A stretch of DNA of 27,608 nt, taken from assembly GCA_964400075.1 (NCBI GenBank), contig CAYNSZ010000001.1, forward strand, positions 1 to 27,608, written 5' to 3'. The position numbers were made by a program, and so were the translations under genes. The notes beneath the pieces were generated by a model. That model did not search any database, was not told where the DNA came from, and saw nothing but the letters and a program-made list of their open reading frames with translations. Every line of letters begins with the position of its first letter. Position 1 is the first letter of the stretch. The stretch comes from an uncultured Planctomycetia bacterium (GTDB taxonomy: Bacteria; Omnitrophota; Gorgyraeia; Duberdicusellales; 4484-171). Shown here piece by piece: positions 11,232 through 12,377 of the stretch.

Positions 11232-12377
11232 TCAAAAATATTCTTTATAGGCGCTGGCGAGACGCTGACGCAACGATTGAGCTTTTCCCGGTTCGGCTTC
11301 ATAGGGGCGCGCCCAGCCATACCTAATACAGCCGAAAGCCGACGACCGCGCCTGCGGCTGCTGGGGCATGACAAAGGCGCAGGGGAACAGCTCTTTACTA
11401 AAAGCGAAAAAACCTTCTTTTACGCCGAGCCTGCCGATCACGGAAACTGTACAGTCATCGGGTTTCAGTTCCCGGATGAACAAGCCGGCTGTTTCTTTGA
11501 GGCGGTTTAAACAATAGCTTTTGACAAAGGTATTGAGGCTCTGAGCGCTGACATTAACATACCCTTCTTCTTTCTTGATGGTTACTTCCTTGTGAACGGG
11601 AATTTCTTTAAAGGAGACGTAGCGTTCAAAAAGCTCCGCGGCAATATCGAGATCGAGCGAAAAATGCTGCGCCAGGCTTTCGATGATCTGCTTGATGCCA
11701 AAATCAAATGACTGAGGAGGACGCAGGCCCTGGCTTGTACTCGCGAGACAATGAGTCTGCAGATAATCAATGTCAAACACTACCTGGGTCTTCTGCGGGC
11801 CGTCAAATACTGACGCAAGCCCTCCCAGCTGGGGCGCGATACAACCGCTTAAGCTCCGGTCTATGGCCTCAAAACTGTCCTCAAGGCTCCGACAGAGCTT
11901 ATCCTTTGCCCAGACTAACAAGGTGCGCAGCTCAATGCGCTTAGCCAGCACCCCCAAAGGCGCTGCGGGATACTCAAGGCCTTCGACTCCATACGCTGAA
12001 ACTACATTATGCAAACAGCGGTCGTCCCATTCCAAAAATTTATCTTCAACGTATTTCTTAGCATCAGCGATATCGGCGGGAGTAATTTTCTTACGCGCGC
12101 GCAACGGCATGGTTTCTGCAATGCTCCGGCTCTGAACACACGACCAGGGCAGTTGTAAAAATATCTTAGTAATTTTAAGGCCGCGGCCCTTCTCGACTGC
12201 GCCGATATGCGCCCGCAAGGCTTCGCCGTGTTCCCGGACATATTCCACAATATCATCATTGCGCAAGGTAAGGGGCGCTTCCAACTCCTGCAAAAAAACC
12301 GGCCGGTCGCCCATTAAACTGGCGAAAGCCAGAAAAGTCCTATCATAACCAACCACGATAGCGCAGGCGCCGTTCAT
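11232..12377 (-). CDS. ftsA: Divergent FtsA-like protein with degenerate ATP-binding motifs
   Basis: ATGA-coupled to ftsQ. FtsA-like segments: AVEKGRGLKITKIFLQLP, KITPADIADA, CLHNVVSAYGVEG...PLGVLAKRIEL, IAPQLGGLASV, GIKQIIESLAQHFSLDLDIAAELFERY, and an amphipathic C-terminus RQRLASAYKEYF. Confidence 0.78.
   Translation of the reverse strand: MNGACAIVVGYDRTFLAFASLMGDRPVFLQELEAPLTLRNDDIVEYVREHGEALRAHIGAVEKGRGLKITKIFLQLPWSCVQSRSIAETMPLRARKKITPADIADAKKYVEDKFLEWDDRCLHNVVSAYGVEGLEYPAAPLGVLAKRIELRTLLVWAKDKLCRSLEDSFEAIDRSLSGCIAPQLGGLASVFDGPQKTQVVFDIDYLQTHCLASTSQGLRPPQSFDFGIKQIIESLAQHFSLDLDIAAELFERYVSFKEIPVHKEVTIKKEEGYVNVSAQSLNTFVKSYCLNRLKETAGLFIRELKPDDCTVSVIGRLGVKEGFFAFSKELFPCAFVMPQQPQARSSAFGCIRYGWARPYEAEPGKAQSLRQRLASAYKEYF

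Follow-up and report, generated by a model that had tools for sequence, protein, structure and literature searches.

We analyzed an FtsA-like gene at the end of a division and cell wall (dcw) cluster, encoded on a 27,608-nucleotide stretch of contig CAYNSZ010000001.1 (hereafter "the window") from a Candidatus Omnitrophota metagenome-assembled genome that is 81% complete. The gene, P0001, lies on the minus strand at 11232–12377, with an open frame over all 381 codons, a TGA stop at 11232–11234, and a predicted product of 381 amino acids. Its upstream neighbor is ftsQ (12374–13168, minus strand; Pfam FtsQ_DivIB_C), to which it is translationally coupled: read directly, the junction is an ATGA at 12374–12377 in which the ftsQ stop overlaps the start of the FtsA-like gene, with an AGGA motif upstream. 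A preliminary description of this DNA, made by eye, had proposed an intact frame coupled to ftsQ, as is indeed the case, and all the peptide strings it quoted are found in the translation of 11232–12377, i.e., on the minus strand, which it had left unstated (IVVGYDRT at residues 7–14, FDIDYLQT at 201–208, FVKSYC at 284–289, VIGRLGV at 313–319, and RQRLASAYKEYF at 370–381). The genes on this strand run in the order mraW, a gene for an FtsL-like small bitopic protein, ftsI, murE, murF, mraY, murD, ftsW, murG, Peptidase_MA_2, murC, murB, ddl, ftsQ, and the FtsA-like gene. The dcw cluster is complete, and P0001 stands directly downstream of ftsQ at its 3' end, i.e., in the position of ftsA; the ddl-ftsQ-ftsA arrangement is common across Omnitrophota. 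A look-up of sequencing runs listed no RNA run and a single DNA run with a small share of matching words.

Curated profiles recognized P0001 only in part. The NCBIfam equivalog TIGR01174 matched residues 51–269 only, at 34.5 bits, and did not reach its cut-off of 175.85, the Pfam FtsA domain gave no match in P0001, and Pfam SHS2_FTSA matched residues 83–155 at 22.1 bits, slightly under its cut-off of 25.4. We defined the family of P0001 (hereafter f1) from 21 full-length orthologues in related genomes (27–40% identity, about 381–393 amino acids, all intact), which makes 22 sequences with P0001, and used 12 canonical-scoring Omnitrophota FtsAs as the canonical comparison set. The f1 family profile matched Escherichia coli FtsA at E = 7e-10, and hhalign against the twelve canonical-scoring FtsAs gave a probability of 99.7% (E = 2.5e-25) in an alignment of 378 columns that begins at the first strand and extends to the last residue. 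An AlphaFold2 model of P0001, built with the family alignment, predicted both lobes confidently (predicted local distance difference test [pLDDT], 89.7; predicted template modeling [TM] score, 0.87), and the best 19 Foldseek matches to this model in the PDB were all FtsA, full length, with TM scores of 0.70–0.76. P0001 is an FtsA homologue by fold, profile, and position, though it scores below the equivalog threshold, and the initial assignment as an FtsA-like protein retaining the 1C/SHS2 region stands on the modeled fold, the sub-threshold SHS2_FTSA match, and the hhalign result.

Next, we compared the nucleotide-binding motifs of f1 with those of canonical FtsAs. The register of all three motifs agreed between HMM (hidden Markov model) alignment to E. 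coli FtsA (7q6d), MAFFT with bridging sequences, and hhalign, and all three methods reproduced the register first drawn by eye; the phosphate-1 and adenosine signatures did not reappear intact under any of them. The phosphate-1 hairpin (12336–12359, minus strand; residues 7–14, IVVGYDRT) is degenerate: where canonical FtsAs have L-(D/E)-I-G-(T/S)-x-K-V, P0001 reads I7-V8-V9-G10-Y11-D12-R13, with V8 at the Mg-proximal acidic site (E. coli E14) and Y11 at the Thr/Ser position. The full signature (D/E)xG(T/S) was found in 0 of 22 f1 sequences, against 11 of 12 canonical relatives. In f1, acidic residues fill the loop, where column entropy rises to as much as 3.3 bits and the central position varies more than any other column in the region. 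Similarly, the adenosine motif (11409–11447, minus strand; residues 311–323, VSVIGRLGVKEGF) is remodeled, with I314-G315-R316-L317 in place of the T-G-G-x of canonical xxTGGxxxxxG. No f1 sequence has the GG pair (0/22), and Arg or Lys takes the place of the second Gly in 19 of 22 f1 sequences vs none of the 12 canonical ones, while neither set varies at G315 or G322 and f1 shows strong conservation of its new motif, G-R-L-N-x-K-E-G-F. Both (D/E)IG(T/S) and TGG are retained in each of the six distinct FtsA sequences with solved structures.

The phosphate-2 hairpin (11751–11783, minus strand; residues 199–209, VVFDIDYLQTH, against VVDIGGGTMD in E. coli) is partly kept. P0001 reads F201-D202-I203-D204-Y205-L206-Q207, preserving D202 and T208; D202 aligns with E. 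coli D210, in a column that varies within f1, and the canonical Gly, present in 12/12 canonical and 12/22 f1 sequences, is D204 in P0001. Here the preliminary description had the register right but was too strict in taking DIGGGTT as the norm, since solved nucleotide-bound FtsAs carry DIGGGT (E. coli), DIGAGT (Vibrio), NLGYNFT (Thermotoga, crystallized with ATP), and DIGEDVT (Staphylococcus aureus). Because phosphate-2 varies in this way among ATP-binding FtsAs, it is undiagnostic on its own, and the "IGYxxS" pattern of f1 is no sign of a dead site. Among the three motifs, it is the apparent loss of phosphate-1 that provides strong evidence. Five Mg-proximal residues have been examined in E. 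coli FtsA, i.e., E14, S84, A188, D210, and Y375, of which the variants E14R, S84L, A188V, and D210A fail complementation (PMC10213515, PMC8897712); they map to V8, P77, P182, D202, and A343 of P0001, respectively. Overall, the disappearance of the canonical nucleotide-binding signature was confirmed family-wide for phosphate-1 and for the adenosine GG, whereas the label "ATPase-dead" goes one step further, to a loss of ATP binding and hydrolysis that is read from sequence comparison.

Constraint in f1 has shifted toward other parts of the protein. Subdomain 1C, the SHS2 insertion (11904–12131, minus strand; residues 83–158), is better conserved in f1 than any other large domain, with the lowest mean entropy (1.65), and subdomain 2B (11478–11681, minus strand; residues 233–300) is retained, as judged from the secondary structure of the model, and is likewise well conserved, with an entropy of 1.76. 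Nineteen columns became newly fixed in f1, with a concentration in 1C (7 columns: K107, K108, L115, W117, C121, H123, and K158) and 2B (4 columns: Y253, F256, E264, and Y273). Conversely, positions invariant in canonical relatives and relaxed in f1 comprise the phosphate-1 Asp and Gly, the phosphate-2 Gly, and five further cleft glycines, while P140, G315, G322, G349, and the terminal Y-F are invariant in both sets. We also observed three cysteines, C5, C121, and C350 (about 12363–12365, 12015–12017, and 11328–11330), that are invariant or nearly so in f1 and not in canonical Omnitrophota FtsAs; these could serve core packing or form a metal or redox site in domain 1A.

In canonical FtsA, 2B is the lobe that binds the FtsZ tail. 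The preliminary description had held that the helix carrying the FtsZ-tail-binding Arg in E. coli has no Arg in P0001, where it reads FVKSYC, a helix that lies in 2B. MAFFT does pair E. coli VIEPRY with FVKSYC, but in the hhalign alignment this helix is displaced by four residues, so that R292 faces E. coli R286; the column is variable under either register. The residue had moreover been mislabeled, since R286W (FtsA*) is described as a ZipA-bypass mutation in filament subunit interfaces and not as the FtsZ-tail contact (PMC7613929). The argument from FtsZ-tail binding is in any case moot, because no FtsZ was found in the phylum (see below).

The C-terminal helix, the presumed membrane-targeting sequence (11235–11282, minus strand; residues 366–381), ends in an (E/D)YF motif found phylum-wide. 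In the AlphaFold2 model, the tail helix is predicted at residues 369–380 with low pLDDT. Within f1, Y377, E379, Y380, and F381 are nearly invariant (Y-x-E-Y-F), and the (E/D)YF ending was present in all Omnitrophota FtsAs examined, canonical and non-canonical alike. Across the family, the final 14 residues form a clearly amphipathic segment, with hydrophobic moments (muH) of 0.47–0.81 that usually rank in the top 2–10% of windows. The tail of P0001 is the weakest of f1 in this respect, with a muH of 0.33, which ranks at the 71st percentile among the 14-residue windows of the same protein, since hydrophobic positions are taken by Ala and Ser. The statement that the protein keeps its membrane anchor is thus supported by homology of the terminal helix, amphipathic family-wide, and the tail of P0001 itself is a putative anchor. 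A separate observation is that a terminal (E/D/N)-Y-F is nearly universal over Omnitrophota FtsA loci L004–L051 and more conserved than a generic amphipathic helix requires, which may point to a specific interaction with lipid headgroups or with a protein.

We then evaluated the distribution of FtsZ and FtsA across the phylum. FtsZ (TIGR00065) was not found in the host genome, in 41 relatives, or in 301 Omnitrophota genomes (281 of high quality), while the same search detected FtsZ in 13 of 14 control genomes; likewise, Pfam Tubulin was found in 0 of 5 genomes, four of them closed. MinC was not found, and FtsK, SPOR-domain proteins, MreBCD, FtsW, FtsI, FtsQ, and the FtsL-like protein were present. 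The SPOR-domain proteins, of which each genome has one or two (177–284 amino acids; contig C19:10029–10229 of genome G000, and relatives), could be FtsN/DedD-like partners of the conserved 1C. FtsA itself is kept throughout Omnitrophota, with 168 of 301 genomes above the curated cut-off, at up to 318 bits and with a canonical phosphate-1. Since FtsA is kept while FtsZ is absent from the search phylum-wide, an FtsZ-independent role of FtsA predates the f1 lineage; what appears special to f1 is that the ATP site was lost later, along a single long stem branch. A gradient is seen within the order of P0001, from family f2 (177 bits, canonical motifs) through the intermediate sister family f3 (92–118 bits, with phosphate-1 and phosphate-2 eroded and GGG kept) to f1 (34 bits, with all three motifs changed), which on these sequences is the most eroded end. 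Elsewhere in the phylum, the FtsAs of f16 (L050:1462–2511) and f6 (L051:1405–2448), about 348 amino acids long, are without most of 2B, a deletion through which FtsA eroded independently once FtsZ had been lost. The FtsA of f7 (L052:1012–2202, genome G039), located downstream of ddl, scores about 63 bits yet keeps DIGGT, DIGFNRT, and TGG, and therefore low similarity alone does not imply loss of the ATP site.

Given the divergence of P0001, we examined selection on the family. Ratios of non-synonymous to synonymous substitution rates (dN/dS) were taken from closer orthologue pairs rather than from P0001, because its nearest relative among 5.8 billion proteins (46% identical) is saturated at synonymous sites. 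The two orthologue pairs with unsaturated synonymous sites yielded dN/dS of 0.10 (dS 0.69) and 0.13 (dS 0.85), values that speak for strong purifying selection, and the gene is intact, full-length, and single-copy in 24 of 24 f1 genomes from about 23 genera. Compared with two congeneric genomes, the FtsA-like protein and FtsQ are the fastest-evolving products of the cluster (37–40% and 34–36% identity, vs 57–58% for MurC and Ddl). In the tree, f1 is monophyletic (100/100), with a long stem (about 1.6 substitutions per site) and ordinary branch lengths inside, a shape that fits one remodeling episode followed by stable constraint. That P0001 might be a relic of FtsA decaying after FtsZ loss is suggested by its strong divergence, down to 34.5 bits on TIGR01174, and by its pace of evolution, matched in the cluster by FtsQ, but it is scarcely credible next to dN/dS values of this order, an intact single copy in every f1 genome, a confident fold prediction, newly gained invariant positions, and a start coupled to ftsQ; the preliminary description had likewise judged this not to be a decaying gene, and the dN/dS check agrees. 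Just as improbable is that P0001 is not FtsA at all and instead another actin-fold protein, for example PilM or a paralogue of MreB. A score below every curated FtsA threshold would allow this, but FtsA structures clearly outscore both candidates against the same model (PilM, TM 0.53–0.58; MreB, TM < 0.5), and the end-to-end hhalign match to FtsA includes the terminal motif. We rejected PilM on these TM scores (vs 0.70–0.76 for FtsA) and on the dcw setting, in which the gene follows ftsQ and does not lie within a pilMNOPQ operon, and MreB on its TM score and because the host carries MreB as a separate gene beside mreCD on contig C53. Selection, fold, and profile evidence effectively exclude both decay and misassignment.

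The reading we favor, with a probability of roughly 60%, is that P0001 is a vertically inherited FtsA that would have lost its ATP site in an FtsZ-less phylum and may remain as a divisome adaptor or polymer that is attached to the membrane, works independently of nucleotide, and acts via 1C and 2B. Specifically, Omnitrophota apparently divide without FtsZ and retain FtsA as the last dcw gene, and on the f1 stem, FtsA would have been remodeled in one burst. The FtsA fold, 1C, 2B, and a presumed C-terminal membrane helix with a YKEYF terminus were kept, whereas the Asp/Gly/Thr signature of phosphate-1 disappeared together with the second Gly of the adenosine motif. With these elements lost, hydrolysis of Mg-ATP by f1 FtsA is most likely gone, and its binding probably so, which would leave an adaptor or polymer constitutively attached to the membrane. 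Its 1C may organize the late divisome at the division site, i.e., FtsQ, the FtsL-like protein, FtsW/FtsI, the SPOR-domain proteins, and FtsK; in E. coli, the 1C of FtsA binds the FtsN tail and forms a lateral filament contact. P0001 would thus probably be a passive membrane scaffold for cell division. The earlier proposal of a repurposed membrane-tethered scaffold agrees with this in the FtsA fold, the motif loss, and the purifying selection, but the scaffold role is one we infer, and the FtsZ-independent role is older than f1.

Several points weigh against this reading. The host genome is incomplete, although closed relatives give the same picture; the tail of P0001 is weakly amphipathic, as described above; and the loss of ATP use is deduced from alignments. 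At the nucleotide site, the phosphate-1 basic residue is mostly retained (Lys or Arg in 18 of 22 f1 sequences), P0001 keeps D202 (the D210 equivalent) and, alone in f1, the phosphate-1 Gly (G10), and the "IGYxxS" of f1 phosphate-2 resembles the "LGYNFT" of ATP-binding Thermotoga FtsA. The second adenosine Gly is also missing in 4 of 12 canonical-scoring Omnitrophota FtsAs, so its change is not decisive, and the strong conservation of the remodeled cleft motifs (G-R-L-N-x-K-E-G-F and D-x-D-K) could mean that a ligand is still bound. Together with the high-confidence prediction of the whole fold, including both lobes, the conserved cleft motifs and the phosphate-1 and phosphate-2 features speak for an alternative in which P0001 still binds nucleotide, with a non-canonical cleft (the conserved D10/D12/K13 loop, G315, R316, K320, E321, and G322) holding ATP, ADP, or another phosphorylated ligand that regulates assembly. 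We consider this alternative unlikely, if by no means negligible: the (D/E)xG(T/S) loop of all six solved FtsAs and nearly all canonical relatives occurs in no f1 member, the phosphate-1 loop is acidic and most variable at its central position, a bulky basic side chain replaces the second adenosine Gly in most of the family, and several cleft glycines are lost.

A further alternative concerns the genes downstream. The slot that ftsZ would occupy holds P0002, a 658-amino-acid protein (9252–11228, minus strand; probable ATG start at 11201) with no Pfam or NCBIfam match, for which language-model features provide a lead toward a HEAT-repeat-like fold. It is followed by the last gene of the string, encoding an HD-GYP-type HD-domain protein of 445 amino acids (7908–9245, minus strand; Pfam HD and HD_5), with synteny kept in congeners. 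The N-terminal region of P0002 weakly matches the gene just downstream, which suggests a common N-terminal domain. P0001 might have been recruited away from division to serve as a membrane anchor for the HEAT-like protein and the HD-GYP phosphodiesterase, i.e., as part of a cyclic di-GMP (c-di-GMP) signaling module. The three genes are contiguous and close-packed, with a 28-nucleotide gap to the probable start of the 658-amino-acid gene, and the arrangement is kept in congeners; a P0002 homologue adjoins the FtsA-like gene in 18 of 24 f1 genomes. However, six f1 genomes, one of them closed, carry the FtsA-like gene with no detectable P0002 homologue, the homologue occurs without linkage in f3 and f8, two families whose FtsA is canonical or less eroded, and P0001 is still coupled to ftsQ in a complete dcw cluster. 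On this distribution, we rejected an obligate partnership; P0002 is an accessory and not an obligate partner of the FtsA-like protein. In other lineages, the slot is filled by unrelated housekeeping genes (proC, a PilT-like ATPase, uvrD, mgtE, ribBA, amiC, and a response-regulator HD-GYP), and no common FtsZ substitute is encoded downstream of ftsA in the lineages compared. Recruitment into c-di-GMP signaling is accordingly improbable in our view. Within the dcw cluster itself, we also observed a gene for an HExxH-type Peptidase_MA_2 protein of 294 amino acids between murG and murC (window 16449–17333, minus strand).

Extending the adaptor reading, one could tentatively imagine that Omnitrophota FtsA is the primary cytoplasmic organizer of the division site, as a membrane-bound actin-like ring replacing the Z-ring. 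In f1, it would then be a nucleotide-free constitutive polymer whose dynamics are set not by ATP but by partners, i.e., late-divisome tails on 1C and possibly the HEAT-like/HD-GYP c-di-GMP pair. We regard this extension as speculative and rather doubtful.

FtsA is normally studied as an ATP-dependent tether of FtsZ filaments to the membrane. In f1, an FtsA function that needs neither FtsZ nor, apparently, ATP is isolated, presumably membrane attachment along with 1C and 2B contacts to the late divisome or to FtsA itself. The graded natural series within one order, from canonical through intermediate to apparently ATP-site-less, could also let the contribution of nucleotide binding to FtsA be compared. 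Published statements on FtsZ in these bacteria conflict: Pende et al. 2021 described Omnitrophica, Planctomycetes, and Chlamydiae as FtsZ-less, with FtsA absent only from the latter two (PMC8178401), FtsZ was reported in "Omnitrophica OLB16" (PMC5147048), dcw genes were described as highly conserved in Omnitrophota (PMC12283558), and a 2025 review considered planctomycetes the only free-living FtsZ-less bacteria (PMC12673574). Our count of 0 in 301 genomes supports the absence of FtsZ throughout the GTDB phylum. FtsZ, FtsA, and MreB go unmentioned in the main genomics paper on Omnitrophota, and our literature search found no paper on ATP-site loss in Omnitrophota FtsA; the loss of FtsZ in the phylum is already published, and that of the ATP site was not found in the literature.

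Compared with known systems, P0001 has in common with canonical FtsA (E. coli 7Q6D, V. maritimus 7Q6F/7Q6I, T. maritima 1E4G/4A2A, S. aureus 3WQT; TIGR01174) the actin-like fold with 1C replacing 1B, subdomain 2B, a C-terminal helix (amphipathic in the family, weakly so in P0001), and a gene directly after ftsQ in the dcw cluster. It differs in being only 11–15% identical, in a shorter linker before the tail, in having neither the phosphate-1 (D/E)xG(T/S) nor the adenosine GG, and in its FtsZ partner, which was not found in genome or phylum. The canonical-scoring Omnitrophota FtsAs (e.g., L027–L038, up to 318 bits) are like f1 in their orthologous position, in the terminal (E/D)YF, and in that no FtsZ was found, and unlike f1 in their invariant phosphate-1 Asp and Lys and phosphate-2 Gly. 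ASKHA-fold (acetate and sugar kinases/Hsp70/actin) pseudo-ATPases such as TsaB/YeaZ, in which an actin/Hsp70 fold has lost nucleotide binding and acts as a structural partner, provide an analogy of principle only, as they belong to an unrelated branch of the superfamily and are without a membrane helix or 1C. PilM (2YCH/5EOU) likewise has an FtsA-type 1C and is a scaffold whose 1A-1C cleft binds a short cytoplasmic tail from a bitopic partner (PMC7613929), but it is a weaker structural match to P0001 (TM 0.53–0.58), is encoded in a different operon, and binds ATP. At the level of phyla, these results bear on how a third member of the Planctomycetota–Verrucomicrobiota–Chlamydiota (PVC) group divides without FtsZ. 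Chlamydiota and Planctomycetota, like Omnitrophota, are PVC phyla with FtsZ-less division that keep peptidoglycan and late-divisome genes (PMC5147048, PMC12283558). However, both lost FtsA as well (PMC8178401, PMC12673574), whereas Omnitrophota keep FtsA, in f1 apparently without its ATP site.

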